From the IMG/VR virus record IMGVR_UViG_3300010400_000004, positions 10,534 to 74,533 of that record: a stretch of DNA of 64,000 nt; one strand, given 5' to 3'. The notes beneath the pieces are model-generated. The model saw only the letters and a list, made by a program, of their open reading frames with translations. It did not search any database and had not been told where the DNA came from. The position numbers were made by a program, and so were the translations under genes. Every line of letters begins with the position of its first letter. Within the stretch, counting starts at the first letter, position 1. The stretch comes from a virus. Positions 2,715 through 54,881 of the stretch are shown here, in pieces.

Positions 2715-4238
2715 ATGGCAGCGATCGGGCAGGAACCAGACGTGCAGCTTAGACCGGAACTATCGACGAACCGGACGCCGATTGATTTTAACGTGGAGCA
2801 GAATGCGGTAGCTCAACTCTCCGACGCTTTTCGTAAAGGAGTTGTCACGGCTGACGACCTCATTGAGCGTTATGGCACACTAGCAAAGACGAAAGAGAAA
2901 GCGCAAATCCAGGGTCTCGATGAGTTTTTGTCACCCGAAGCAATCCAAGCTCGCCAGCAACAAACCGCTTTGATGGGATCGAAAGCGAAACAAGAAATCG
3001 CTCTTGCCCCTGCTGAGGAAGCGGCCAAGAAAGCTACGTATGAAGCAACTCGAATCGCTGCCGAACAGGGCGATAATGCTTCGGTTCGAAAAATTGCGAT
3101 CGAAAACGGTTTTGGTGGGAATCTTTCTCCCTATTCGGCAGTCAATAAAGATCAAGATTTGAAGGCTTATCAAGACGCGGTAGCGTATAAAGCGGCAGTT
3201 TCCGGGGCTATCGAACTCGGAAAAGATGTTGACCGGCGCGAGCATGTTCAAGATGTTACCAAGGGCGGAATTCAAACAATTACGAAAGATTCATCGAAGG
3301 ATACTCTCGCAAGTAAAACCTCCGGACACGATTATACGAAAGAAGAAACCGGTAAAGCGGCTGCACTCGCCCGAATGACCCCGCAACAATGGATTGCTGA
3401 AGGACGGCCCACACTCGGTCAATATGTTTACGGGGTAAAACCAACAGAACAACCGGCGAATAAACCGGACAAAGTTGTTCAACCTGTTTCGGAATTAGTC
3501 ACCCCTCGGGTGACAACGGAGACCACGACTTATGGCGCGGACGGTTCTCGAACGGTGACTAAAAAAGTCGTCGATCCGACAGAACATCCTGATTTGCCGT
3601 TGCCGGATAATGTGACTACCTCTAAAGAGGTGGATAAACCGATGACCGCCGATGACAAAGGAAAAATTCTCGGTCAGGTTCGAACCGCCGATGAAATGGC
3701 GGAGAAAATCAATGCTGCCCAGGCAATCGTTCACGATGAAGCTCTTCAAGCAGTCGGACCGGGGGCACTTCAGGGGACTCGTATTGCTCAGACTTTGAAT
3801 AAAGTGGGGGCCGCTTTTGGTAGTGATATCGCCGTCAAAAAAGCCGAGGCACAAAACCAACTCGATCAGTTCATCGCACAGAGTATTCAGAACACGATTC
3901 GATCGATGGCTGGTTCCGGAAACAGAGTCATGCAAGCTGAAATTGATCCTCACACCGGTTTGTTCACTCGTGCAAATCCAACAATGTCCAGCACACCGGC
4001 AACCTGGGATAAATGGTTTGGCGAAATGAGAGATTTATTTTCTCGCGCACGGGAAGATTCTGTAAGTTTGTTACCCGATGAATTGAAGGGCAATGTTCCG
4101 AAGGCACCAGTTCCAGTAATTCCCAAAGGAGTCGGGGCGGAAACAAACCCTTCGGCTGCTCCTTCCAAGGTCGTGAACATTCCCGGCATTGGTAAAGGAC
4201 ATTACGACCCGGTAAAGAAGAAATTCATCGTTGAATAA
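2715..4238 (+). CDS. Internal virion/ejection protein
   Basis: 507-aa helical Ala/Gln/Lys-rich ORF between the pilot-like gene and the giant protein. Assigned from synteny. Confidence 0.5.
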   Translation: MAAIGQEPDVQLRPELSTNRTPIDFNVEQNAVAQLSDAFRKGVVTADDLIERYGTLAKTKEKAQIQGLDEFLSPEAIQARQQQTALMGSKAKQEIALAPAEEAAKKATYEATRIAAEQGDNASVRKIAIENGFGGNLSPYSAVNKDQDLKAYQDAVAYKAAVSGAIELGKDVDRREHVQDVTKGGIQTITKDSSKDTLASKTSGHDYTKEETGKAAALARMTPQQWIAEGRPTLGQYVYGVKPTEQPANKPDKVVQPVSELVTPRVTTETTTYGADGSRTVTKKVVDPTEHPDLPLPDNVTTSKEVDKPMTADDKGKILGQVRTADEMAEKINAAQAIVHDEALQAVGPGALQGTRIAQTLNKVGAAFGSDIAVKKAEAQNQLDQFIAQSIQNTIRSMAGSGNRVMQAEIDPHTGLFTRANPTMSSTPATWDKWFGEMRDLFSRAREDSVSLLPDELKGNVPKAPVPVIPKGVGAETNPSAAPSKVVNIPGIGKGHYDPVKKKFIVE

Positions 4239-7200
4239 TGCCAACGACCCTCGAAAGTCTCGATCTCGAACAGAGGTTGTCTCGCCCGAAACAACCTCTT
4301 TTCGATCCTACCCAGGTTGTCGGCTCAGAACCCGTGGAAGACACCACGGTTTCTGCACTCAGAGCACAACCAATTCCGGACCTGAAGGGCTATATCGATC
4401 CTGCCGATTTGGAGCAGGGTCCGCCAGCTCCGCCTCCCGAACCACCAAAACCGGGCGATGAGGTTGATCTAACGCCTGAACAACTCGCGGAGTATCGAAA
4501 GCAAACCGGGGAACTCGATCCGCTTCTCGATTTCACCCCCGAGCAACTCGCCCAAATCGAAATCAACGATCCGGAGGGCGGAAATTTGCGACGGATGTAT
4601 ATGGATCGACCAGACCTGATTGGTGATCCGGACACAATCAAGAAACTCGCCCAGGCGAATAAACTCGTTCACGCGAGGCACGAAATTCCGACTGCGGGAT
4701 TGCCGCCCGAGGTTGCCCTTGGTGCTCGTGTTGTCGGTCTCGGAGAGACGGCGATCGAGGCGGCGAAGCACATGCACCCGCTCAAGGCGGCGAAAGATTT
4801 TGCCGTGGGTGTGGCGAAGTATGCGAAGAATGCGATTCAGGGAATAGCTAGTCCGTTTGTGCCTGAGGAAACCCAGCAAGAATATCGACAAAAGGCGGCG
4901 GAGAACCTTGCTGCGTCTGAATTGGCAGTTACCGGACTTGCTGGTGGTGTTCGGACGGCGGCACACAAAGCCGCTCAGGTTGCCGGAATTGCAAAACCGT
5001 ATTCAGAACTAACCGACCACGAAGCAACCGACCTTTTCTTTTCCGATTTAACAAAGGAAGCGGAACGTCAAAGAATCGTGACCGGCAAAGGCGCTATCAC
5101 ACAGCAAATCGCCGGTCCGGTGATTGAGGAACTGGCGCAAGCAGGCAAACCGATCAGGCCGGAAGAGGTTTCTCAACTTGCGGCTGGTGATCCATTCACT
5201 TTTTATGCTTTCGCAAAAGGATTCGGCGCGGCTGGGAGTCTGGTTCCTGCCGAAGCGAAAGCAGTATTGAACGATGCCGCTACCTGGGTTGGCGAAGTCA
5301 GCGCGGAGTCTGCCGGAACCGCGCTTGAAGGAATCGGCGCGGCTGCTAAGAATCTCGCGAAGCCGATTGAAGTTGTTTCTCGACAACCGAGCAGATTTTT
5401 CAAGACTGGAATCAGTGGTGGACTTTCCAAAATCGCAAAAGAAGTTGGGAAAAGAGTCCCAGGTGCCGCCGAAGGAGTTGAACAAATCGGAAAAGAGATT
5501 CGCCTGGGTGAACGCGCACCATTAGAAAATTACGGTGGAATCGTCAGTGACTCCGCCCAATTTGTTCGGGACGCAATCGAAGCGACTCCCGGTGCTGCTG
5601 GCCATGTTGCGGCAGGCGGACTTTTCGATGTATCGACGGCGGCAGTAATGTCGGAATTTCCCGAGGAAGAACGAGGAACTGGCATCGGTCTCGCGTTCGG
5701 GTTACTCGGTGCGGGTCGCGGACTTGCGGGACGAGTTATCAGCGGTCAGGAAATTGCGCCTCGCAATTGGGGAACCAAAACGCAGATACCAACCAGCGGA
5801 CCTTTCAAGGGAAGCGCGTTCGATCAACAACATGAGGGAGCTTATCGCGGGGCAGCTCCAGCAGTGAAACAGCGAATCAACGCAGTGCGGGAATTTCTTC
5901 GAACTGCCGCGCCCGGAGTTGATTTGTTTTATGTCCCCGATAAAGCTACGTTTAAACAGTCTCTCATCGACCAGGGAGTTTCGGAAGCAGACGCGGAACT
6001 TTGGTCAAGTTCTCAAGGTCTTTCGCTCCGAGACTTGAATGGAAAACCGGTTGCTTTTGCCGCCAACATTGACGCAGCTCCACACGAGTCTTTTCATCCG
6101 TTCCAAGATGTCATAGGAAAACAAGCCAACGACGCCCTCAATCAAAAAGTGTTGTCAGCTTACACCGAGGCAGAGATAAATCAACGCGGAGCAACCGATG
6201 CGAAGAATCTCGGATGGGACGGCAAAGGCGATTACCGGGATTTTCTTCTCGACGTGACTGGAGAAGGCTACGCGCAAGCAATCGATTCTCTCACGCAAGA
6301 AGCCGCGAGAATCATTGAATTTTCTACAGGTCAGAAGGCGACTCCTGCTGATGCTAAGGCCCAGGCAATGCAGATGTTCAACGATGCAATGACTGAGGCG
6401 ACGAGCAAAAATCCAGGTGTGTCGCCTGAAGCGATCCGTCGAAATGTGTGGCGGGGTCTGCTTACTGAAGAGCAGCAAAAAGCGGCAGCGAATAACTACA
6501 TTGCAAACGAAATTTCCGCCGATACTTGGTCAGCCGTTTTCAAGCACGGAAAAGACCCGAAAGGATTGGTGAGGCGGTTTGCGAAGGTCGCAAGCACTTT
6601 CGTTCAATTACTCGGTGGTGAACCTCTCGAAGGACGATTCGAAGATTACACACCACTCCGCAAAAAAGCGGTTGAAGCGGTGCGTGAAGCGGCCAGAGCC
6701 AGAACGGAGCAACCACCGAAACTTTTCGGTGAAGAACCGACAGTGACGCCGAAGATTCCGGAAGCACCTGTTGCACCTCGGGCACCGTCACCATCACCAG
6801 TTTCGCCTCCAGGCACTCCTGAGGAAGAAGCGAAGATTACTAAAGACGTTGCTGCTACCGCTCCGGAAACTCCAACTGGTCCGGAAGTAAATGCTCAATC
6901 TCAGCGGGATATTCTCGGAACAATGGCGGAAGCGAAGGCAGGCAATTACGGAGTGAAAATCACTCGCCGTGCCGCTCCAGGCACTCCAGCAGGCGCAATT
7001 GAAGTCAGCCGGGGACGCCGCCGAGAACAGATTGAGACTGCCCGGGGAATTCCGGACGATCAAAAGCCGCTTTGGGAGAAAAATTTTACGCCGGTCAAGA
7101 CGGTAAAACTGAATGACGGCAGCATTCAAGAGCAAGGCTGGTCGCCGGAAGTTCTCGCTGCGAATGCGGAGAAAGTCGCGAAGTTTTTGGCCGTCGCTGA

Positions 7201-10200
7201 TCCGGCGTTATCGCCTTTCGAAATAGATCGAACAAAAGGCACTTTTACCCCTGAAGGATGGAAACAGCTTTTCGACAAAGTAAATGTCTTCGCTGGAAAT
7301 CAAGCTGCCGGTCTGACAGGCAAAGGCACTCCGCTCGCAATCGGCAAAGCGCGTGCATTCGGATTTTTCGAACCGACCGGCAATCGAGTGCCTGTAGGTA
7401 GCTTAACCGACGCAGAGATGAATTTCATCAACTATTTGTTCGGTTATCCACTCCCGGGTGAAGGTAAACCGACCGTGGCAAGAGGCGGCAGCAAACAATA
7501 CGGCGTGCAACTCATCTCCGAGGCAACTGAACCCGGCAGGGCTTTGCCCTTGGTTGAGCCGAGAACTTTCGCAAGCAAAGAAGCGGAGAGACTCGGTTTC
7601 GCTGGCAAGCAAGTCCTCGAAGTGAATCCGCTTCGCGCAGAAATTGAAGCGACTGCTCGGGCGACTGGAAACACCGCGCCGTCGCTTATTGAGGCTTGGC
7701 AAAACCTCAACTTGCGTGACATTGTTAGGGCGGACGTTGCTCCTGAGTTGCCAGCGGTTCGACCTGTGGGAGTCACGCTTCGGGCCGGATTCAAACCCCG
7801 CGATTTGGTTACTCCAAAGATTGAAAAAGAACTCTTGGAATCGAAAGTTAGATTCGAAGACGGAACTTTGAAACCCGTATTTCACGGGACCGTTTCTAGT
7901 TTTGACTTGAAAGATTTTGATACAAGTGGATTCAGAGCACATTTCGGAGCGCCGGGTCCAGCAGCCGCGAGAACAATAGGACCACTGAGTAGCAGAACTA
8001 CGGGGGCAGTTCAATCTACCGAAGGATCACAAACTATTCCCGTATTTTTAGACATCCGAAATCCGTTGAAACTGGATGATGCGGCTAACTGGAATAATGC
8101 TTTAGATGTGGTTCGGGCTTTAGAAAAAGAAACAAGCGGCAAATTAAAACTACCCCGTAAATTACGAGACAGACAAGTAGGAAATCGATTAAACGATTTA
8201 TCGGATAAACTTTTTAGAGAAAAGCAAGAATCAGGTGTGAGAGAAGAGGACATCGGGGAAGCCTCGTATTTAGAGGCCAACAAAATAGTTATCGATGAAA
8301 TAAAACAACTGTTGAAAGATCAAGGATATGATGGAATCGAATATGAAAACGCTTTTGAAGTCGGTCCCCGGGTGGCACCCGATTATAGCCGAGTAGGTGA
8401 AGAATTTGAAAAGGATTACGGAGACACCTCTTACATACCCTTTTCAAACGATCAGATCAAATCTGCGGTTTCCTTTAAACCTGCCGAACGCAAAGAAATC
8501 GAAATCACTGGTCCAGACGGCAAGCGATACAAAGCGATGTTCGACGGTTATCAGGATTTTTCCGTAACCGGGCGCGGTCTTCAGCCTCAAATCACGGCTC
8601 TCGAAAACATACCGGGTGTTACTACTGCGAAATCGACTACTTACGGGGTCACGTTGGAGAAAGCTGGCTTTACACTACCGGAATTGCCTTCGCCTGAGGT
8701 TGCTTTCAAACCGCCTCGAAGAACGGAGGATTTTGGAACGATTGAAAAACAATTCGCCTTGGAGCACCCGAATAATGCGGGGTCTCGATTTGTGGATGAG
8801 TTTTCGAAGATTCATCAAAAAGATGAAGAACTTCGACGCTTGATGAAGGACGTGTATTTTAAAACACCGGAAGAATCAGATGATTTATATGATCAAGCTA
8901 AAGATGTTCAAAAATCTCTTACGAAACCTTCTAATGTGGCCGAGGCAAAACTCGGGGGATACATACAGGATCGTTATCCAGAACTGGTTAAAGAATCGAA
9001 ACTGGCCAACGATTACTTCGAACAGTTATTGACAACCAAAGAGCAAGACATCCCAAGAATGCCTCTTATTGTTCAGGCAAAAGAAGGTTTCGCGATAGGA
9101 AAAATAGTTCAGGAAGGTCACGACGCCCATGAAGCGCAGCGATTCCTCGATGACTGGCGCGATGAGGGATACGCTGAAGTGAAAAGTGAAAACCCAGCCC
9201 TGGCGCGTTGGATCGATGACAATTTGTTCTCGGGTAGCGGAAAAAACGCAGCTACAGAGGGCGTGGCATTCAAACCAAAGTCGAAACCCAATGCCGCCGA
9301 TGAGGATTTCGATGCGGTTCATTACAGCTCCAATGCCGGTCTTCGGACAGTCGATCCGAGTTTCTTCGGCAAAGGAAAGGCTACTCCCGCCGATCTGAGG
9401 GGCGGACCGAAATCATATTTTTTCGTAAAAGGTAGTGACTTTGGTCAAGATGCTGCTATATTCAAGGATGCTGGTTTGCATGAACACGAGGTTCGGATTA
9501 AAGGCTCTGATCTCTACGATCTTCGAACCGGAAAGCCGGATGATCTCGGTTGGCGGAAGACGGTTAATCGAGAAGAGGCCGATGATTTGGTCAAGGAAGC
9601 TGGATACAAGGGCATTGTTCTCGATACGGCAGACGGTAGGCAGGTAATCGCTATGTTTGAACCGGTCAAAGTCAAAAAACCGGCACCAGTGCAATTTTCT
9701 CCGATGCCCGCGAATCCTCGCGCAATCAAACAAGCTGCGGTGCGCGACGAGAAAACCGGCGAGGTTCATGTCGGGATGTTGCATCCATCCATTGTAAACG
9801 ATCTCATACAAAAATCAGTTGCAGAAGGAAAATATCACGAAGGAATAACTGATAATCTTGTAGATGGTTTTGTAACAAATGACGGAGAATTTCTCACCCG
9901 TGATGAGGCTTTCGACCGGGCAATAGAACTTGACCAAGTATCAGAAAAAGATTTCAAACTGAGGAATTCCTGGTTGGAAAGTCGAGCCTTCGCTGCGGAA
10001 CGAAAATTCAAACCGAAACAAATCGAGCCGCCGACCCAGGCCGAATTCGACGACCCGGACACGATCAAGGACGCACTCGCCAAACCGGGCTGGGCAATAC
10101 TTACCGGCACTCGGGAGAAAATCGACGGAAAAGAAGTGCCTTTCGATCATCCGGAGAACCTGAAGGCGAATGAAGAGCTGAAGGCGGACATGGATGCTCA

Positions 10201-11626
10201 GGGTCTTGATTATTTTCCAGTGGACGGAACTTACAAAGGTCAGCCGCAAGGCGAATCGTTTGTCGTTCTCGGTATCACGCCTAAGAACGCTCAAAAACTC
10301 GCCAAGAATTATGGTCAGGAATCGGTATCCGTTCCAGAAGGATTGTTATACGGCAATGGCACGATTGTCCCAGGTGATGTTTCAAAGACAATCGTTGGAC
10401 CTGAGGCGAAAAAACAGGAATTTTTCTCGACTACTCCTGAGGGAGTGAGTTTCAGCATCCCCTATGAATTCGGCAAGCCGATTGAACCGGTGGGTAATCA
10501 GCCGGAACTTTTCGGGAAATCTGTTTCAGAAACGGAAGACATCAACCGACGCCTGAGGGCACGGGTAAACAACAAAAAAGAGAAGTTTCCCGAGTCAGCT
10601 CCATTGGGTTATGTTAAAGATGACGTGGGAAATTTCAAACTCGACAAGAAAACCGGAAAGCCAATACCAGAGAAACAGGACTATTCGTTCCTCGACTCAG
10701 GGCTTGCCAAGGAAGCCGGAAAAGGATTGCGCGGCGATGATCGAGAGGCCGCTTATGTTGAATCAGCGGGCGATAAGTTAGCCGCCGAATATCGTAAAGC
10801 GGTCAAAGACCCGAAGGTTGCGGCAGGCGCGAAATGGTATTCGACGCTTCGCACCCGGCTCAAAAGTCTCTTCGGAAAACAAGCACAGCTTGTTTGTGAG
10901 ATTCTAGCCGCGCTATCCGCACGAACGCCTGTCGAGACAAATTATCGTTTCGGCATCGACGCTTTGAATAAATTCAATGCCGGGGATTACGATGCCCAAC
11001 TCAAAAAATATCAGGAGGGACTCGATAAATGGGACGCCGGAAAAATTTCGGAATATGTGGATGCAACTGGCTTAGATAATCCAAAGCGCAGCACTTTTCT
11101 TAACTGGTGGATCGATGAATTCGATCTGAAGCCGCGCCAAACCAACGGCAAACTCTTCGCTGCTAATTCGAAAGCGTTATTGCGGGCGTTGCATGGTTCC
11201 TGGGAAGGCGGAAAAAAGACGAGGCAATTTTCTCAGAATATGTCGGGCGCAGATTTCGGTAGCACGATCGATGTCTGGGCTGCACGCACGCTGCACCGGC
11301 TTTCCAATGAAGGGATTGTCGATCGATGGAGAATTTTGCCTGAACACGAGAACGCGGTGCAAGATGACGACTTTGATGTAGCACAGAAAGTGTATAAGCA
11401 TGCCGCCGATAAAGTTGGAGTGAAACCCGATGCACTTCAAGGAACACTCTGGTTCAAGGAAAAAGACTTGTGGGAAAAACGCGGTTGGACGAGAGGCGCG
11501 GGCGCGGAGAAATCTGATTTTTCATCTTTGATTTCCGAGACGGAGAAACATCCATCCGGAGAATATCGTCTGAAGACACCCCAACTTAATTTACTAGAAG
11601 TTAAACCTAGACCAATACGAAAATGA
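4238..11626 (+). CDS. Giant polyvalent virion protein: HExxH zincin-like motif, two ART-like domains, DUF3293-like domain, C-terminal helical glycosylase-like domain
   Basis: APHESFH; KPVFHGT...IPVFLDIRNP...GYDGIEYEN (ART-PolyVal pattern); VHYS...SYFF...GYKGIV; WAILT...NEELKADM...ESFVV...YGQESV; KWY...AALSA...N...STIDVWAAR...LQGTLW. Confidence 0.8.
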   Translation: MPTTLESLDLEQRLSRPKQPLFDPTQVVGSEPVEDTTVSALRAQPIPDLKGYIDPADLEQGPPAPPPEPPKPGDEVDLTPEQLAEYRKQTGELDPLLDFTPEQLAQIEINDPEGGNLRRMYMDRPDLIGDPDTIKKLAQANKLVHARHEIPTAGLPPEVALGARVVGLGETAIEAAKHMHPLKAAKDFAVGVAKYAKNAIQGIASPFVPEETQQEYRQKAAENLAASELAVTGLAGGVRTAAHKAAQVAGIAKPYSELTDHEATDLFFSDLTKEAERQRIVTGKGAITQQIAGPVIEELAQAGKPIRPEEVSQLAAGDPFTFYAFAKGFGAAGSLVPAEAKAVLNDAATWVGEVSAESAGTALEGIGAAAKNLAKPIEVVSRQPSRFFKTGISGGLSKIAKEVGKRVPGAAEGVEQIGKEIRLGERAPLENYGGIVSDSAQFVRDAIEATPGAAGHVAAGGLFDVSTAAVMSEFPEEERGTGIGLAFGLLGAGRGLAGRVISGQEIAPRNWGTKTQIPTSGPFKGSAFDQQHEGAYRGAAPAVKQRINAVREFLRTAAPGVDLFYVPDKATFKQSLIDQGVSEADAELWSSSQGLSLRDLNGKPVAFAANIDAAPHESFHPFQDVIGKQANDALNQKVLSAYTEAEINQRGATDAKNLGWDGKGDYRDFLLDVTGEGYAQAIDSLTQEAARIIEFSTGQKATPADAKAQAMQMFNDAMTEATSKNPGVSPEAIRRNVWRGLLTEEQQKAAANNYIANEISADTWSAVFKHGKDPKGLVRRFAKVASTFVQLLGGEPLEGRFEDYTPLRKKAVEAVREAARARTEQPPKLFGEEPTVTPKIPEAPVAPRAPSPSPVSPPGTPEEEAKITKDVAATAPETPTGPEVNAQSQRDILGTMAEAKAGNYGVKITRRAAPGTPAGAIEVSRGRRREQIETARGIPDDQKPLWEKNFTPVKTVKLNDGSIQEQGWSPEVLAANAEKVAKFLAVADPALSPFEIDRTKGTFTPEGWKQLFDKVNVFAGNQAAGLTGKGTPLAIGKARAFGFFEPTGNRVPVGSLTDAEMNFINYLFGYPLPGEGKPTVARGGSKQYGVQLISEATEPGRALPLVEPRTFASKEAERLGFAGKQVLEVNPLRAEIEATARATGNTAPSLIEAWQNLNLRDIVRADVAPELPAVRPVGVTLRAGFKPRDLVTPKIEKELLESKVRFEDGTLKPVFHGTVSSFDLKDFDTSGFRAHFGAPGPAAARTIGPLSSRTTGAVQSTEGSQTIPVFLDIRNPLKLDDAANWNNALDVVRALEKETSGKLKLPRKLRDRQVGNRLNDLSDKLFREKQESGVREEDIGEASYLEANKIVIDEIKQLLKDQGYDGIEYENAFEVGPRVAPDYSRVGEEFEKDYGDTSYIPFSNDQIKSAVSFKPAERKEIEITGPDGKRYKAMFDGYQDFSVTGRGLQPQITALENIPGVTTAKSTTYGVTLEKAGFTLPELPSPEVAFKPPRRTEDFGTIEKQFALEHPNNAGSRFVDEFSKIHQKDEELRRLMKDVYFKTPEESDDLYDQAKDVQKSLTKPSNVAEAKLGGYIQDRYPELVKESKLANDYFEQLLTTKEQDIPRMPLIVQAKEGFAIGKIVQEGHDAHEAQRFLDDWRDEGYAEVKSENPALARWIDDNLFSGSGKNAATEGVAFKPKSKPNAADEDFDAVHYSSNAGLRTVDPSFFGKGKATPADLRGGPKSYFFVKGSDFGQDAAIFKDAGLHEHEVRIKGSDLYDLRTGKPDDLGWRKTVNREEADDLVKEAGYKGIVLDTADGRQVIAMFEPVKVKKPAPVQFSPMPANPRAIKQAAVRDEKTGEVHVGMLHPSIVNDLIQKSVAEGKYHEGITDNLVDGFVTNDGEFLTRDEAFDRAIELDQVSEKDFKLRNSWLESRAFAAERKFKPKQIEPPTQAEFDDPDTIKDALAKPGWAILTGTREKIDGKEVPFDHPENLKANEELKADMDAQGLDYFPVDGTYKGQPQGESFVVLGITPKNAQKLAKNYGQESVSVPEGLLYGNGTIVPGDVSKTIVGPEAKKQEFFSTTPEGVSFSIPYEFGKPIEPVGNQPELFGKSVSETEDINRRLRARVNNKKEKFPESAPLGYVKDDVGNFKLDKKTGKPIPEKQDYSFLDSGLAKEAGKGLRGDDREAAYVESAGDKLAAEYRKAVKDPKVAAGAKWYSTLRTRLKSLFGKQAQLVCEILAALSARTPVETNYRFGIDALNKFNAGDYDAQLKKYQEGLDKWDAGKISEYVDATGLDNPKRSTFLNWWIDEFDLKPRQTNGKLFAANSKALLRALHGSWEGGKKTRQFSQNMSGADFGSTIDVWAARTLHRLSNEGIVDRWRILPEHENAVQDDDFDVAQKVYKHAADKVGVKPDALQGTLWFKEKDLWEKRGWTRGAGAEKSDFSSLISETEKHPSGEYRLKTPQLNLLEVKPRPIRK

Positions 11627-11792: not shown

Positions 11793-12395
11793 ATGGCAAA
11801 AGAAATGATCGATCCAGCGGCACTCGGAGATACCACCGCTCCAGAACAACCGGCTACCTCCGACCTTCCGGATGAAGTATTGCAGATACCCGCCGTCCAG
11901 GGATTGATAGCCGGTTCGCCGGTTGCAGTCTCCGCGAAAGTCAAAGACGCGGAGAAGACCGAGCAGGGCAAATTGATTATCGACAACGCTAAGGAGTTGC
12001 AGAACAACGGCATCGGTTTCTACCGATCGCTGAGTGGGGATACCGCCGTGTTATTCAACACACTGCATATCAACGGTGAAGACATCAAAAAGGCGGACAA
12101 AGCAGGGAAACTTTTACAGATAGCGCCTCCGTTCGATCAAGTGAACGCTGAAATTTCAAAAATGGGTCCGGATGCTCATCCGTCTTTGAATTCCTCAGGG
12201 GTGCCTGGGGGTCCAGCTTCGCCTGGGGCAGCTTTGCCGCCTCAAAGTGCCCAAATGCCTATGCCAGCGAACGACGGTGCGTCTGCGGACCGTCTGAGGG
12301 CGCAAATCGCGAACATTAAGCCTCAGGCTCCGACTGCCGGTGCCCGCCCGGGGGCTGGTCGTTTACTCAACTCGATTTTGAAGCCCGTTCTTTGA
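11793..12395 (+). CDS. Hypothetical protein, last gene of the virion module
   Basis: 200-aa ORF; converges with the - strand block. Confidence 0.6.
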   Translation: MAKEMIDPAALGDTTAPEQPATSDLPDEVLQIPAVQGLIAGSPVAVSAKVKDAEKTEQGKLIIDNAKELQNNGIGFYRSLSGDTAVLFNTLHINGEDIKKADKAGKLLQIAPPFDQVNAEISKMGPDAHPSLNSSGVPGGPASPGAALPPQSAQMPMPANDGASADRLRAQIANIKPQAPTAGARPGAGRLLNSILKPVL

Positions 12396-13003: not shown

Positions 13004-13358
13004 ATCTCGGGGCTTCGATCCAGGGAGTGAGAAAAACTCCATTCGAAGAATCTTCTTTGCTTTTGCATCTTAACGGAAAGCCTTCCGACACTCTTCGGGG
13101 ATCGTTTTCGATAGCGTGAATCTGAGGAAATTCGGGACGTTTAAACAGAACAGGAGAAACCCGATCGAATCCTTGATTACGTAGGAATGAAAGTTCGTAA
13201 GGTGCGTTCAGCCATTCCGGATTGATGACCCAAATACCACCGACTTTTTTATAGGATGCAGCAGTTTTCCAGCATCGATCGAAAGTAATCGCCGGGGGCA
13301 GCACTACCGTCCCGGCGACGGCGGCTGCGAGGGTTTTGAAAAAGCTTCGGCGGTTCAT
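12996..13358 (-). CDS. Hypothetical protein with twin-arginine (Tat-like) signal
   Basis: MNRRSFFKTLAAAVAGTVVLP. Confidence 0.6.
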   Translation of the reverse strand: MNRRSFFKTLAAAVAGTVVLPPAITFDRCWKTAASYKKVGGIWVINPEWLNAPYELSFLRNQGFDRVSPVLFKRPEFPQIHAIENDPRRVSEGFPLRCKSKEDSSNGVFLTPWIEAPRYE

Positions 13359-13756
13359 TTTTTGAGATAGTCGATTGCACGTTCGAGCACTTCGGGATTT
13401 TCCTTAATGTGACCGATATACATATTGCAAGGAGCGCACAGAATTCCACGCACTTCATTTGTTTTGTGATTGTGATCTACATGCGGACGATTCATAATTT
13501 TTTGACAGATCACGCACCGGCTATTTTGCTCACGAAGCATTGCCTCGTATTGTGTAGCAGACAATCCATATCTCGCTTTTAGGTGTTTGAATTTTCTTTT
13601 TACTTTGGTGCGGGGTAGCTGGTCGTATTCTCTCTGTTTAGTATTTTCACAGGTAAAACAATGTCTATTACGATACAACCCTCCCGGAACTTTTTTGTTC
13701 TTCTGTAAACGAAACTCGTGTATCGTTTTTTCTTTCTTGCAAGTTTTACACGTCAT
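13355..13756 (-). CDS. Endonuclease VII-family homing endonuclease
   Basis: CKTC...YGLS...CVIC...HVDHNH...VRGILCAPCN. Confidence 0.9.
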   Translation of the reverse strand: MTCKTCKKEKTIHEFRLQKNKKVPGGLYRNRHCFTCENTKQREYDQLPRTKVKRKFKHLKARYGLSATQYEAMLREQNSRCVICQKIMNRPHVDHNHKTNEVRGILCAPCNMYIGHIKENPEVLERAIDYLKK

Positions 13757-47048: not shown

Positions 47049-47372
47049 ATGAACGAATTTTTCGAGCATGTCTTGAAGTTGTGTGAAGAACACGACATCG
47101 CAATTTATCTCCACCCCAAGTGCAGGCCCGTAGCTTTTCCTGAGGGCCGACAGATAAACATTCATCCGGTCCGGTCAGTTGTGAATTACTGTGAGGCACT
47201 CCATGAAATCGGACACATAATCACTTTTCGCTCGAATCAAACTCGCATGGAAAAAGAACTTGCCGCCTGGGAGTGGGCTGTAAACAACGCTCTTCAATGG
47301 GAAGAAGAGCACCATATTTTTATGGCGAAATGTCTTGCGCTTTGGCGGGAAGAGTGTAAAGTGAATGTATGA
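47049..47372 (+). CDS. Small HExxH metallopeptidase-like protein (ImmA/IrrE-like)
   Basis: ALHEIGH...EKELAAWEWA. Confidence 0.6.
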   Translation: MNEFFEHVLKLCEEHDIAIYLHPKCRPVAFPEGRQINIHPVRSVVNYCEALHEIGHIITFRSNQTRMEKELAAWEWAVNNALQWEEEHHIFMAKCLALWREECKVNV

Positions 47373-48148
47373 GTTATATCGAGCGAAATCCAGTTGAGGC
47401 GAAACAAGTCTATTCTTATATCCGGGTCAGTGGCAAAGGTCAAGTCGGCGGCGAAGGTCCGGACCGCCAGCGAGAAAGCATCAGCGCCTTCTGCTCAAAC
47501 AAGGCACAACTGATTGGAGAGTTTTTCGAGGCAGGCGTCAGCGGCACAGTTGACGGCCTGGACAGACCGGAATTCGCGGACATGATCGAGAGGATTGAGT
47601 CGTGTCGTTTAAACGGAATGGAAGTCGCGGGCTTCATCGTTGAACGGCTCGATCGGCTGGCGCGTGATTTAATGGTGCAAGAGGTTTTGCTGTCCGAGTG
47701 CCGCAAGCGGTCAATTTGCGTCTATGCGGCTGACCAGGGCGATTTTGTTGACTTGGCGAGTGATGCCGTCGATCCGACACGCAAACTCATTAGACAGGTA
47801 ATGGGCGCGATTGCTGAGTGGGAAAAATCTCAAACAGTTTTGAAGTTGCGTAAAGCGCGTCAAGCTGTTAAAAGAAAAACGGGACGGTGCGAAGGTCGCA
47901 AACCATACGGTGTTACACCGGAAGAACAGGCTATCCTGAAGGTGTTGCAGATTTTCGTCCGTCCCGAACATACTATTCAGGAAGTCGCGGACATCCTGAA
48001 TCAAGAAGGACTCCGGACTAGGTTCGGAACTGAGTGGAACCGCAAATCTGCATTCCGGATAATGAAGGTCGCCGGGGTGTGGACGAGGAAAGACCAGAGA
48101 GAACAACGGTTGAAAAACCTGAAAGGAACACATGGACGGAGCGTTTAA
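47369..48148 (+). CDS. Serine recombinase (resolvase/invertase catalytic domain plus partial recombinase domain)
   Basis: YIRVS..GQ; GVSG..DRP; ERLDRLARD; GRKPYG; LNQEG.RTR.G.EW. Confidence 0.9.
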   Translation: MSYIERNPVEAKQVYSYIRVSGKGQVGGEGPDRQRESISAFCSNKAQLIGEFFEAGVSGTVDGLDRPEFADMIERIESCRLNGMEVAGFIVERLDRLARDLMVQEVLLSECRKRSICVYAADQGDFVDLASDAVDPTRKLIRQVMGAIAEWEKSQTVLKLRKARQAVKRKTGRCEGRKPYGVTPEEQAILKVLQIFVRPEHTIQEVADILNQEGLRTRFGTEWNRKSAFRIMKVAGVWTRKDQREQRLKNLKGTHGRSV

Positions 48149-48473: not shown

Positions 48474-48548
48474 GGGACTGTAGTTTAACGGGAGAATGAC
48501 CGGCTTGCACCCGGTAGATGTCAGTTCGATTCTGACCTGTATCCACCA
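48474..48548 (+). tRNA. tRNA-Ala (TGC) with irregular acceptor stem
   Basis: ACCGG-CTTGCAC-CCGGT; GTCAG-TTCGATT-CTGAC; G3:U70 possible; ACCA end. Confidence 0.75.
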
Positions 48549-48554
48549 ATTTTT

Positions 48555-48630
48555 CGGAATGTAATGTCAGCGGAAGACGGCTCGGCCTGGAACCGAGAGG
48601 CCGAAGGTTCGAATCCTTCCATTCCGACCA
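48555..48630 (+). tRNA. tRNA-Pro (TGG) with atypical C33 and A37
   Basis: CGGAATG/CATTCCG; CTCGG-CCTGGAA-CCGAG; GAAGG-TTCGAAT-CCTTC; ACCA end. Confidence 0.8.
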
Positions 48631-52096: not shown

Positions 52097-54205
52097 ATGC
52101 CCGATAATTTAGGGACCGAATACCAGACTGGCCAAGACTACCCCGGCACGATAATTCAATCTCCGCAGATTGATTCATCCGGTGAACCGACCCAACGAAG
52201 CATCAAAGATGCGAACATGGGCCGCGAAGTGGTCAAACTCATTATCCAGGCAGGCAGAAACCGATCGATCGTTGGCTCTCGAATCCTGGCGAAATACAAC
52301 GCAGAGAGGCCATACGATAGCTACAAGTTAGAGGCAGAAGGTCTCGGGTGGAAGCAAAACTTCACGACCAAGCCAATGCCAAGCATGATCGAGAAAGTCG
52401 CACCTCGATTCACTCAGGCAGTTGACGGACTGAAATATCTCACCAACTCAAAACTTTCCGAAGATTGGGAAAACGCCTCAGAGAAAACGGAGACTTTTCG
52501 TGAAGTGATTACGCGCACGATTCGAGGGCGCAAGGGATGGACTACTCTCGTTGACGACATCGCTTTTAACAACGCCCTCTTTGGTTATTCCGCTGTTGCT
52601 TGGCTCGACGAGTTTACTTGGTTCCCGAACCATTTCAAATTCGATGAAGCGTTCGCTCCCGATGGAACGAAGCAGGATAGCACGTATTGTCAGGTAATGA
52701 TTTTGAAGGAAACTTTTCTTCCGAATGAATTGTTTTCAAAAATCCGTGACGCAGAATCAGCGAAGCAATCCGGATACAACCTCGAAGAAACCCGGGCCGA
52801 GATCAACATCGCCAGTCCGGTGCAGATTCGCGATCGTCTCAATGTCGGCGGCACGCTCGAATTTTGGTATCAGAACGCTTTGCGAGAATTGACTATTGGC
52901 GCAAGTTACATGGCGGGCGCGAGCGTGATTGTTGTTTATCACTTACTCGCTCGCGAGGTAAACGGAAAAGTTTCCCATTATCAATTTGCTGGCCCAGGTC
53001 TCAAAGCGATTTTTTCTAAGGACGACAGGTTCGAATCGATGGAAGCCTGCCTTACATTTTTCTCTTACCAAAAAGGAAACGGCACCCTTCACGGTTCGAA
53101 AGGCGTTGGTCGTGACATTTACGAACTCGCTGGGATGATCGACAGAACACGAAATGAAATCGTCGATCGGGCTATTCTTTCAGGAAAAATTCCGATTCAA
53201 GGCGACGTAAAACGCATTCATACTTTCAAAATGTCGGTCGTTGGCATGACGTGTATTTTCCCGACCGGCTGGAATATTTTGGAGCAACGTCTCGACGGCA
53301 ACATTGAACCTTTCCTCAAACTCGATGCTTACTTTTCTAGTCTTGTGGATCAGCTTATTGGCAATACTTCTCCACCTCAAATGGCAGGAGGCGAAGCGTT
53401 CCGATCACCGGCTGCGTGGAACCTTCTTGCAGCGCGGGAAGAAGAAGGAAAAGATTCGCGCATAACTCGTTTTATGACGCAGTTCGTGAATATGGTGCAA
53501 ACAATGCAGCGACGAATTTGCGACAAAGAAACGATCGAAGATGATGCGAAAGCCGCCCAGGAAGAACTTCTCAAGAAGATGACTCGGAAAGAAGTTGATG
53601 AACTCGCGAAATATCCTGTGGCTGGAACTGTTCGAGACTTGACTCCGCTCGAACGCCAAATGATAGCTCTCGTGGCTACTGAAAAAAAGGGAAATCCGTT
53701 ATACAATCAGAGAGCGTTGGAGGTGGAGGATTTGACAGCTCGTGTGGGAACTGAATTTGCAGAACGAGTTTTGTTACCCGGCAACGATCCTTCTGAGGAA
53801 GCGGAACAGCACCGACTTCAGCAATTCGAATCTAATATTTTGTTGCAAGGGGCTGCTGTCCCGGTTTCGGCAAGAGATTCGCACATTGTGCATCTCCAGA
53901 CACTTTTACCGTTAGCAGAACAAGTTGGCGGGGGTATTATGAACGGACAAACTCCGAACGGAACCCAAGTTTTTGAGGCTATTATATCCCACGCAGCAGA
54001 ACATTACTCTCGTGCGGAAGAACAGGGAGCGGATAAAAAACTTCTAGCACCCGTAAAACAGTTTTTGGATAAGGCAATTCCTACGCTTCAGCAGTTGAAG
54101 CAAATCGACAGTCAGCAAAATTCCATCGGCCAAGCCCTCGGACACCCCGATCAACAAATACCCCCGGATGAGCAACAACAGGCACAATCTTCCGCAGCAG
54201 TCTAA
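52097..54205 (+). CDS. Portal protein
   Basis: 702-aa ORF after terL with a Gln-rich helical C-terminal barrel; podovirus-like synteny. Confidence 0.7.
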   Translation: MPDNLGTEYQTGQDYPGTIIQSPQIDSSGEPTQRSIKDANMGREVVKLIIQAGRNRSIVGSRILAKYNAERPYDSYKLEAEGLGWKQNFTTKPMPSMIEKVAPRFTQAVDGLKYLTNSKLSEDWENASEKTETFREVITRTIRGRKGWTTLVDDIAFNNALFGYSAVAWLDEFTWFPNHFKFDEAFAPDGTKQDSTYCQVMILKETFLPNELFSKIRDAESAKQSGYNLEETRAEINIASPVQIRDRLNVGGTLEFWYQNALRELTIGASYMAGASVIVVYHLLAREVNGKVSHYQFAGPGLKAIFSKDDRFESMEACLTFFSYQKGNGTLHGSKGVGRDIYELAGMIDRTRNEIVDRAILSGKIPIQGDVKRIHTFKMSVVGMTCIFPTGWNILEQRLDGNIEPFLKLDAYFSSLVDQLIGNTSPPQMAGGEAFRSPAAWNLLAAREEEGKDSRITRFMTQFVNMVQTMQRRICDKETIEDDAKAAQEELLKKMTRKEVDELAKYPVAGTVRDLTPLERQMIALVATEKKGNPLYNQRALEVEDLTARVGTEFAERVLLPGNDPSEEAEQHRLQQFESNILLQGAAVPVSARDSHIVHLQTLLPLAEQVGGGIMNGQTPNGTQVFEAIISHAAEHYSRAEEQGADKKLLAPVKQFLDKAIPTLQQLKQIDSQQNSIGQALGHPDQQIPPDEQQQAQSSAAV

Positions 54206-54881
54206 ACTTTTCACATTATACGGATTGAAGCGTCCCGACGAGGACCGAATCCGATATATTGGGATCACGTCGTCGAGCTTGAAGCTTCGTCTTAGAAAAC
54301 ATATTACTGATAAAGGAAGCAACACTCATAAAGATCACTGGATCAATAAAATGTTTCCTTTAATGCCCGTGATAATTCCGATCGCGGTGGAATTATCTTT
54401 TGACGAAGCGTGTGATTTAGAGATTTTCTTGATACAGTCTCTTCGAGAAAAATTGAATTTGGTGAATATTTCGAACGGCGGGACCGCTCCCACGTTGGGG
54501 CGTAAAGCATCCGAAGAAACTAGAGAAAAATTGCGCCGGATACATACGGGAAAAAAGCAAACTCCAGAGCACATAAAAAACTCTTCTGATGCCCGAAGAG
54601 GTTGGAAACATTCTCCGGAAACAATTCTAAAATATAGTCAGACTCGAAGGGGTCGGAAGCACTCTGAGGAAACAAAAAAGAAAATGTCGGAATCTCAAAA
54701 AGGAAAACATTTTGTAACTGAAGAAGGTAAACTTAGTATTTCTAGGGCTAATTCCGGATCGGGTAACGGCATGTTCGGGAAGAAGTATTCTGAAGAGGAA
54801 AGAAAAAAACTTGCAGTCTCTCAGCAACTCAGAAGAGGCCGGGAAAAAATGGAACGAATACTCGCAGAAATGTGGAGATAA
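54168..54881 (+). CDS. GIY-YIG homing endonuclease with NUMOD3 repeats
   Basis: LYGL...IRYIGIT; HSEETKKKMS repeats. Confidence 0.9.
   Translation: MSNNRHNLPQQSKLFTLYGLKRPDEDRIRYIGITSSSLKLRLRKHITDKGSNTHKDHWINKMFPLMPVIIPIAVELSFDEACDLEIFLIQSLREKLNLVNISNGGTAPTLGRKASEETREKLRRIHTGKKQTPEHIKNSSDARRGWKHSPETILKYSQTRRGRKHSEETKKKMSESQKGKHFVTEEGKLSISRANSGSGNGMFGKKYSEEERKKLAVSQQLRRGREKMERILAEMWR

Follow-up and report, generated by a model that had tools for sequence, protein, structure and literature searches.

A 64,000-nt stretch of phage DNA, hereafter the window (positions 10,534 to 74,533 of IMG/VR record IMGVR_UViG_3300010400_000004), encodes a giant protein, P0001, in which a short peptide of the form A-Q-F-x-P-K marks the joints between a conserved N-terminal core and a series of unrelated cassettes. 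Judged by comparison of sequences, this joint is a real feature found throughout the family of P0001, and a role in proteolytic cleavage is predicted for it. That P0001 is a self-processing, ejected polyprotein of the polyvalent type is in our estimate about an even chance. The source is a single contig of 74,533 bp from an uncultured soil phage with a genome of ~74.5 kb, and the features discussed below are listed in Table 1. An earlier reading of the same DNA, made by a model from the letters alone and referred to below as the original prediction, had described a polyvalent virion protein whose effector modules are separated by a repeated F[K/S]P motif. The assignment to the polyvalent type is borne out by a Pfam ART-PolyVal domain (PF18760; ART, ADP-ribosyltransferase) and by the presence of several unrelated effector domains. 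The giant gene lies in a late, structural-side operon.

The F-x-P joints and the protein family

The six F[K/S]P motifs of the original prediction all lie in frame, at the positions given in Table 1. The motif as such is real and family-wide, but its form had to be revised. That is, a logo built from 209 joint sites gives A-Q-F-x-P-K with a variable middle residue x, where A occurs at position -2 in 36% of the sites, Q at -1 in 39% (an 8.6-fold enrichment) and K at +1 in 30%. In P0001 the sequence [A]-[Q/G/K]-F-x-P-[K/R/S/A] stands 3-6 residues ahead of the fold of every cassette but the last, so that the motif is present at six of the seven cassette junctions, and none is found at the junction between the DUF3293 and DUF7178 modules. 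Outside P0001, FKP is rare in the 74.5-kb genome. Two look-alikes within P0001 were rejected as joints: FEP at amino acid (aa) 1807 is domain-internal, belonging to the conserved end of module 4, which reads FKP even in proteins whose joints carry Q; 'FGKP' at aa 2078 closes the DUF3293 module, where this ending is conserved, and is not a seventh joint.

A word-indexed search with aa 1150-2000 of P0001 as query gave 31 giant homologues of 1467-3485 aa, which also include other enzyme domains (GNAT, radical SAM, His-phosphatase and methyltransferase), and a metagenome scan gave 25 loci, mostly from soil, with complete contigs of 72-75 kb. The family grew to at least 150 clusters at 50% identity, 116 of them with E<1e-30, when the core (aa 540-1191) was used as query in an exhaustive HMMER search, and in nearly all of these clusters the match to the core stops at about residue 1050-1280 of the hit. 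The common plan is a conserved N-terminal core of 1,100-1,200 residues, followed by variable modules and usually by a C-terminal DUF7178 domain. No match to P0001 was found among INPHARED phages at the DNA or protein level, nor any relative in IMG/VR (searched with a single-module query, a degenerate DNA pattern and alignment) or on GTDB genome contigs. Three family members (P0022, P0023 and P0026) begin, within aa 1-70, with four or five tandem 'FDPxKAGA' repeats, a distinct repeated F-x-P element.

When F-x-P tripeptides were listed in the homologues, each protein showed the same kind of repetition with a middle residue characteristic of its lineage, e.g. P0008 has nine copies of FQP, P0014 seven of FSP, P0030 eight of FLP and P0032 five of FMP. 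One F-x-P tripeptide is significantly repeated in 67 of the 159 long family members, x being Q in 41 of them, L in six, S in five, K in four and M in four. The counterparts of joint 5, located before the same module in relatives, read FQP, FSP, FMP, FLP or FAP.

Joints as module boundaries

The motifs had been proposed to fall at domain boundaries, and two lines of evidence agree with this. First, the homology blocks obtained by BLAST between P0001 and the 31 homologues begin or stop at aa 1186-89, 1411-13, 1484-97, 1672-88, 1812-22 and 1923-32, i.e. both the motif and the turnover of modules are encountered at exactly the points that had been indicated. Family-wide, of 9137 endpoints of homology blocks, 27% are no more than 6 aa away from a dominant F-x-P, against 5% expected. 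Second, aa 1160-2100 were modelled with AlphaFold2 from a 35-row alignment (mean predicted local distance difference test score, pLDDT, of 67), and five of the six joints fall into low-confidence linkers of this model. Joints 2-6 lie in segments with pLDDT<50 that separate confidently predicted domains, and the motif is usually at the end adjoining the following domain. Joint 1 (aa 1185) belongs to a stretch that the model left unresolved, as the ART module did not fold. A long Pro-rich linker within the core (residues 286-317 of model B, described below) carries no such motif, and therefore the motif is specific to cassette junctions rather than a general property of linkers.

Selection on the peptide and its middle residue

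The original prediction had also offered a DNA-level explanation, in which the motif is a microhomology (TTYAAACC) for module swapping. This is not supported, as the codons at the motif vary freely: TTT and TTC, AAA and AAG, CAA and CAG, and all four CCN codons are used at the joints, following the gene-wide usage within each gene, and the five AAA codons at the joints of P0001 fit its gene-wide AAA usage of 70%. The DNA flanking the joints shows no shared identity. With such free choice among synonymous codons for F, x and P, selection acts on the peptide and not on the DNA. A recombination junction (TTYAAACC or similar) that serves cassette swapping and has no role in the protein would fit the turnover of cassettes exactly at the joints, as well as the foreign base composition of module 1, which begins right after joint 1. 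Nevertheless, this explanation is largely refuted by the codon variation and the unrelated flanks; moreover, the amino acids are conserved across lineages that differ in their DNA, and x switches while the modules remain homologous. We consider it extremely improbable.

FKP, the form seen in P0001, is in the minority and derives from the widespread FQP. In the core tree, the sister of P0001 (K) is P0034 (Q in seven of nine joints), with P0033 (Q in all 10 joints) as outgroup, and L008 (FKP seven times) is the sister of L017 (FQP nine times); P0006 and P0007 make up a third K lineage. K at x has thus been found in P0001 and at least two other independent lineages, and the tree as a whole needs at least 14 changes of the state of x. 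Between sisters, the homologous joints in front of the same modules differ, one protein having K and the other Q. Compositional drift was rejected as the cause of the Q-to-K switch, the overall K and Q content being equal in K-type and Q-type proteins. Such concerted switching between sisters suggests that some reader of the joint constrains x within a lineage.

The conserved core and its predicted peptidase

In P0001 the core comprises about 1185 residues. The HExxH motif that had been noticed in the N-terminal half of the protein is HESFH and is conserved in the family. Among 118 aligned members, all have H616, H620 and E758, 116 have E617 and 115 have A761, and position 762 is E or D in all 118. 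The AlphaFold2 model of the core (model B, aa 540-1191) has a mean pLDDT of 83 and shows, in order, an N-terminal helix, three strands (model residues 23-26, 56-61 and 64-69), the HExxH helix (72-87), a helical insert and the Glu helix (205-231), a topology that agrees with the zincin metallopeptidase (MPTase) core described in PMC5512222. A few members carry HExxGH; these were not taken to be dead peptidases, HExxxH being already described in PMC5512222 as a variant of polyvalent-protein zincins. Comparison of the model with known structures by VIA-align gave weak matches to the catalytic domain of anthrax lethal factor (1yqy_A, Z 5.0, 139 residues aligned) and to Certhrax (4fxq_A, Z 6.1). 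Sequence searches with aa 540-830 returned no Pfam family at E<=5 and no PDB match, and Foldseek against the PDB returned nothing at E<=0.001 for either model. The core's C-terminal portion carries a WYL/Sm-like barrel, the closest match being PafBC (6sj9_B, Z 9.4, 88 residues aligned), followed by CapW, DriD and BrxR (Z 7-8).

Only three of 571 alignment columns (684, 900 and 1105) covary with x, and we treat them as leads. Position 684 (6287-6289), in the peptidase domain, is Lys or Arg in ~90% of the family and neutral (S/Q/I/Q) in all three FKP lineages. As a lead, K684 is a candidate pocket residue for the middle position x of the joint.

A possible processing mechanism and its alternatives

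We infer that cleavage takes place at the joints and that the predicted zincin of P0001 itself is the most likely enzyme. Zincins usually prefer a bulky hydrophobic residue at P1', and for this reason we propose that the cut is made before Phe. That is, the enzyme would cleave on the amino side of Phe, with x as P2' and Pro as P3'. Cutting at all joints would yield the core and six pieces of about 228, 77, 188, 142, 104 and 539 residues; given the lack of a canonical joint between the DUF3293-like module and DUF7178, these two would stay together. The released pieces would then act separately on the host, by ADP-ribosylation, NAD+-directed chemistry and removal of S-adenosylmethionine (SAM) against restriction-modification. 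The uniform x within a protein and its concerted change between lineages would reflect co-evolution with whatever recognizes the joint.

A number of observations weigh against self-processing. The repetition within P0001 carries little weight, in that FKP occurs five times where 0.58 are expected, a count within chance, as 439 of 1000 shuffles of P0001 hold some tripeptide equally enriched; the count is not significant because the correction covers all possible tripeptides, and the reality of the motif rests on comparison with relatives. Furthermore, x is mixed in 61 of 118 members and must therefore be a preference, and cannot be a strict specificity determinant. The loss of K684 covaries with x in three pairs (sign-test p 0.25) and is a lead only, since three independent pairs cannot reach significance. 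Fold matches of the putative peptidase to zincins are weak (Z 5-6; Foldseek E 0.17 to anthrax lethal factor), and the Pfam MPTase-PolyVal model does not match it. The association of P0001 with the virion is suggested by gene order and weak annotation matches, and cleavage, packaging and ejection are predictions for every family member. Finally, the tail bearing joint 1 is disordered in the core model and not docked in the active site, and two members with HDxxH or HDxxGH, i.e. Asp in place of the catalytic Glu, retain Q-F-x-P joints.

The last two points favour an alternative in which the joints are cut by another protease, either a phage-encoded head-maturation protease within the capsid or a protease of the host once ejection has taken place, and in which the HExxH domain is itself an effector or an enzyme that breaches the envelope. 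It is common for the prohead protease to trim internal proteins of phages at short motifs, as in T4 and phiKZ, and a lineage-specific x could follow different hosts or different proteases acting in trans. Against this, FKP is enriched in no other ORF (open reading frame) of the genome, which means that candidate proteins of the capsid or scaffold share no such site, and across the family the zincin signature is as invariant as the joints are. No protease family was recognized in 30 ORFs of the late plus-strand block and the neighbourhood of the giant gene (PHROGs for all, Pfam also for ten), which is weak evidence because most of these proteins matched nothing at all. On balance we regard cleavage by another protease as distinctly unlikely.

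Alternatively, the joints may not be cut. F-x-P would then be a linear motif or hinge (for capping, capsid packing, threading through the tail channel or chaperone binding) in one multi-enzyme chain. The motif stands directly before each fold, as an N-cap would, the fact that x is mixed in half of the family points to loose recognition, and delivery without processing is described for the N4 virion RNA polymerase and for some polyvalent proteins of plasmids (PMC5512222). On the other hand, a structural cap would not be expected to share x across unrelated folds or to switch it in concert between sisters; the preferences for A and Q at -2 and -1 lie in a disordered linker, outside the following fold; and the linker within the core lacks the motif. 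An uncut chain therefore seems unlikely to us, with enough in its favour to be kept in mind.

A more specific form of self-processing would be a private code, in which x is a P2' determinant that co-evolves with a pocket residue (K684), each joint is cut by the protein's own peptidase only, and the products carry a Phe-start N-degron. An N-terminal Phe is a primary bacterial N-degron, recognized through ClpS/ClpAP. If this were true, each lineage's polyprotein would be cut only by its own peptidase, and the released effectors would start with Phe, giving the injected enzymes a built-in short lifetime. We consider the full set of these assumptions a long shot.

The cassette modules

Module 1, called ART-like in the original prediction, matches Pfam ART-PolyVal at aa 1207-1411 (E 1.4e-13; 52.2 bits against a cutoff of 31.2 bits) and has an ART-PolyVal-like match in BFVD (E 3e-7). 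Its visibly higher AT content was also confirmed: its GC content at third codon positions (GC3) is 0.34, compared with 0.38-0.54 in the rest of the gene (module 5, 0.38; module 3, 0.41; other parts, 0.46-0.54), and its overall GC is 0.42. Modules 3 and 5 are also somewhat AT-rich. The composition shifts immediately behind joint 1, which is what a recently acquired cassette would be expected to show. Module 2 is 50-60% identical in many homologues and often sits just after joint 1 in relatives.

The second ART-like assignment, that of module 4 ('..DTADGRQVVAMFKP..'), has fared less well: there is weak fold support for a RES/ParT-like domain (MbcT, 6fkg_B, Z 6.2, 117 residues aligned; ParT, 6d0h_A, Z 5.5), and the Pfam matches are weak (ART-PolyVal, E 0.1; RES, E 0.23). 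Module 4 is present in most of the homologues found with the aa 1150-2000 query, at 38-72% identity, and is the best-conserved cassette among its carriers. It is absent from all 24 giant proteins of the Joint Genome Institute (JGI) metagenome loci (L001-L025), and therefore even the best-conserved cassette is optional. Module 5 is often duplicated in relatives.

For module 6 the expected DUF3293-like domain was recovered by Pfam (aa 1970-2030, E 2e-8, above cutoff). Its fold corresponds to 7ock_L (Z 10.3, root-mean-square deviation 3.6, 125 residues aligned) and, by Foldseek, to 8bb1_E (probability 1.0, template modelling score 0.60), its BFVD matches are SAM hydrolases of T7-like phages, and the Pfam S-AdoMet_lyase model gives E 0.014 and 15.8 bits, below its 28-bit cutoff. 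The DUF3293-like module always ends in '..IPxDF-xx-P..' (10469-10480, aa 2078-2081) and runs into '..GEQEQLFGG' before DUF7178. Module 7 matches PF23802 at aa 2176-2405 (E 4e-13), a domain that is conserved at the C-terminus of most relatives.

Table 1. Coordinates of the giant gene, its joints, core domains and cassettes, and of other genes (window positions unless stated otherwise)
Feature	Position	Strand	Evidence or remarks
Giant ORF P0001, 2462 aa	4238..11626	+	One uninterrupted reading frame
Predicted zincin-like metallopeptidase domain, aa 540-828	5855..6721	+	AlphaFold2 model
HESFH (H616, E617, H620), predicted zinc-binding/catalytic motif	6083..6097	+	aa 616-620
E758-x-x-A761-D762, predicted third zinc ligand, second helix	6509..6523	+	Gluzincin-type ExxA[E/D]
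C-terminal part of core, aa ~869-1179, WYL/Sm-like beta-barrel	6842..7774	+	VIA-align
Joint 1, GFKP, FKP aa 1185-1187	7790..7798	+	In family-wide '..TLxAGFxP' closing the conserved core
Module 1, ART-PolyVal ADP-ribosyltransferase domain	7799..8473	+	Pfam PF18760
Joint 2, SFKP, FKP aa 1413-1415	8474..8482	+	End of low-pLDDT segment, model residues 211-256; homology-block end
Module 2, small beta-rich domain, ~74 aa	8483..8704	+	pLDDT 84-98
Joint 3, AFKP, FKP aa 1490-1492	8705..8713	+	Low-pLDDT segment, model residues 331-341
Module 3, helical domain, ~185 aa	8714..9268	+	AlphaFold2 model; no Pfam family
Joint 4, AFKP, FKP aa 1678-1680	9269..9277	+	Low-pLDDT segment, model residues 506-523
Module 4, RES/ART-like domain	9278..9694	+	Ends in domain-internal '..DGRQVIAMFEPVKV'
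Joint 5, QFSP, FSP aa 1820-1822	9695..9703	+	Low-pLDDT segment, model residues 658-665
Module 5, alpha/beta domain, ~100 aa (PRAIK...GFVTNDGEFLTRDEA)	9704..10006	+	Homologues, AlphaFold2 model
Joint 6, KFKP, FKP aa 1924-1926	10007..10015	+	End of low-pLDDT segment, model residues 751-767
Module 6, DUF3293 domain, phage T3 SAM lyase/hydrolase fold	10016..10507	+	Pfam, structure comparison
Module 7, C-terminal DUF7178 domain	10508..11623	+	Pfam PF23802
507-aa gene overlapping P0001 start	2715-4238		No Pfam or PHROG match
HNH/homing endonuclease or endonuclease VII-like genes	908-1582, 54168-54881, 13355-13756 (window); 1750-2202, 6478-7104 (L026)		

Genomic setting

P0001 is the last large gene of a late block on the plus strand, and overlaps, at its start, the stop of the 507-aa gene upstream. 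The block ahead of it includes tail-like and virion-like genes, with a synteny that is conserved in relatives (the genomic context of relatives being drawn from 24 JGI metagenome loci), and the genes beyond P0001 lie on the opposite strand and have DNA-metabolism functions. Pfam and PHROGs recognized almost none of the neighbouring late proteins, and PDB sequence searches with three large late proteins and the core gave nothing useful. Capsid, portal, terminase and head protease were not recognized among the neighbouring late proteins because these same Pfam, PHROG and PDB searches matched almost none of them.

The nearest named ESM Atlas cluster of the 507-aa protein is the P22 injectosome translocase (PF16928; score 0.92), which we treat as a lead only. 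Together with a 325-aa gene (1608-2585) and the giant gene, the 507-aa gene may form a three-gene ejection module. Directly downstream of the giant gene is a 200-aa gene (11793-12395, plus strand) without a family match, which is found in the same place in 19 related loci. Several HNH/homing endonuclease genes and two endonuclease VII-like genes are scattered over the late and early regions. In addition, a serine recombinase/invertase-like gene (47369-48148; PHROG integrase/invertase, E 1e-28) is followed by genes for tRNA-Ala(TGC) and tRNA-Pro(TGG) (48474-48630).

Comparison with known systems

Iyer, Burroughs, Anand, de Souza and Aravind proposed in 2017 (PMC5512222) that polyvalent proteins are processed by their MPTase domain; the passages on cleavage and processing in that paper define no site, and the word 'linker' does not occur in it. 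Our literature searches found no description of the A-Q-F-x-P-K joint or of DUF7178, and no cleavage site for polyvalent proteins. The joint thus supplies exact candidate cleavage sites for the 2017 idea. It is a peptide of four to six residues that recurs across at least 150 sequence clusters with the natural variants Q, K, L, M, S and A, and sister pairs that differ only in x make the cleavage hypothesis directly testable. With the joints as marks, the limits of effector cassettes could also be drawn automatically in phage genomes from metagenomes, and the cassettes themselves (ART, RES-like, SAM-lyase-like and several unknown folds) form a catalogue of candidate counter-defence enzymes for the first minute of infection.

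Like the polyvalent proteins of PMC5512222, P0001 combines unrelated effector domains in one phage chain and includes an ART-PolyVal domain and an HExxH/Glu zincin with a helical insert, and HExxxH variants occur in both families. Unlike those proteins, for which the cleavage and processing passages define no site, the P0001 family marks its cassette boundaries by the A-Q-F-x-P-K joint with a lineage-specific middle residue. Compared with Pfam MPTase-PolyVal proteins, the P0001 peptidase is unmatched by the model, and the core adds the WYL/Sm-like barrel and the C-terminus DUF7178.

The arrangement is also reminiscent of viral polyproteins. The picornavirus 3C protease cuts its polyprotein in cis at AxxQ/G (between Q and G), and P0001 likewise has a short peptide at its domain junctions, disordered linkers beside the start of the next domain and a protease signature in cis. 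In contrast to the picornavirus system, P0001 comes from a double-stranded DNA phage and is putatively virion-associated, its predicted peptidase is a zincin and not a chymotrypsin-like enzyme, and its cleavage is a prediction.

A third parallel is with the ejection proteins of podophages (T7 gp14-16, P22 gp7/gp20/gp16 and cyanophage A4 gp26-29; PMC12002296), which are large, are encoded beside tail or portal genes and in some cases contain enzymatic domains. The P22 injectosome includes the protein that the upstream neighbour of P0001 resembles according to the ESM Atlas lead, and the cyanophage A4 pre-ejectosome chain 9k3a_B aligns weakly with module 4 (Z 5.7). Unlike P0001, however, the podophage ejection proteins have not been described as arrays of cassettes with a repeated joint, and they have no detectable sequence homology to it.

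Lastly, the SAM lyase (SAMase) of the phage T3/T7 group is an anti-restriction enzyme. Module 6 shares the fold of T3 SAMase (7ock_L, 8bb1_E); unlike that enzyme, module 6 is a cassette within a giant protein, belongs to DUF3293 by sequence and has a SAM lyase activity that is predicted from its modelled structure.

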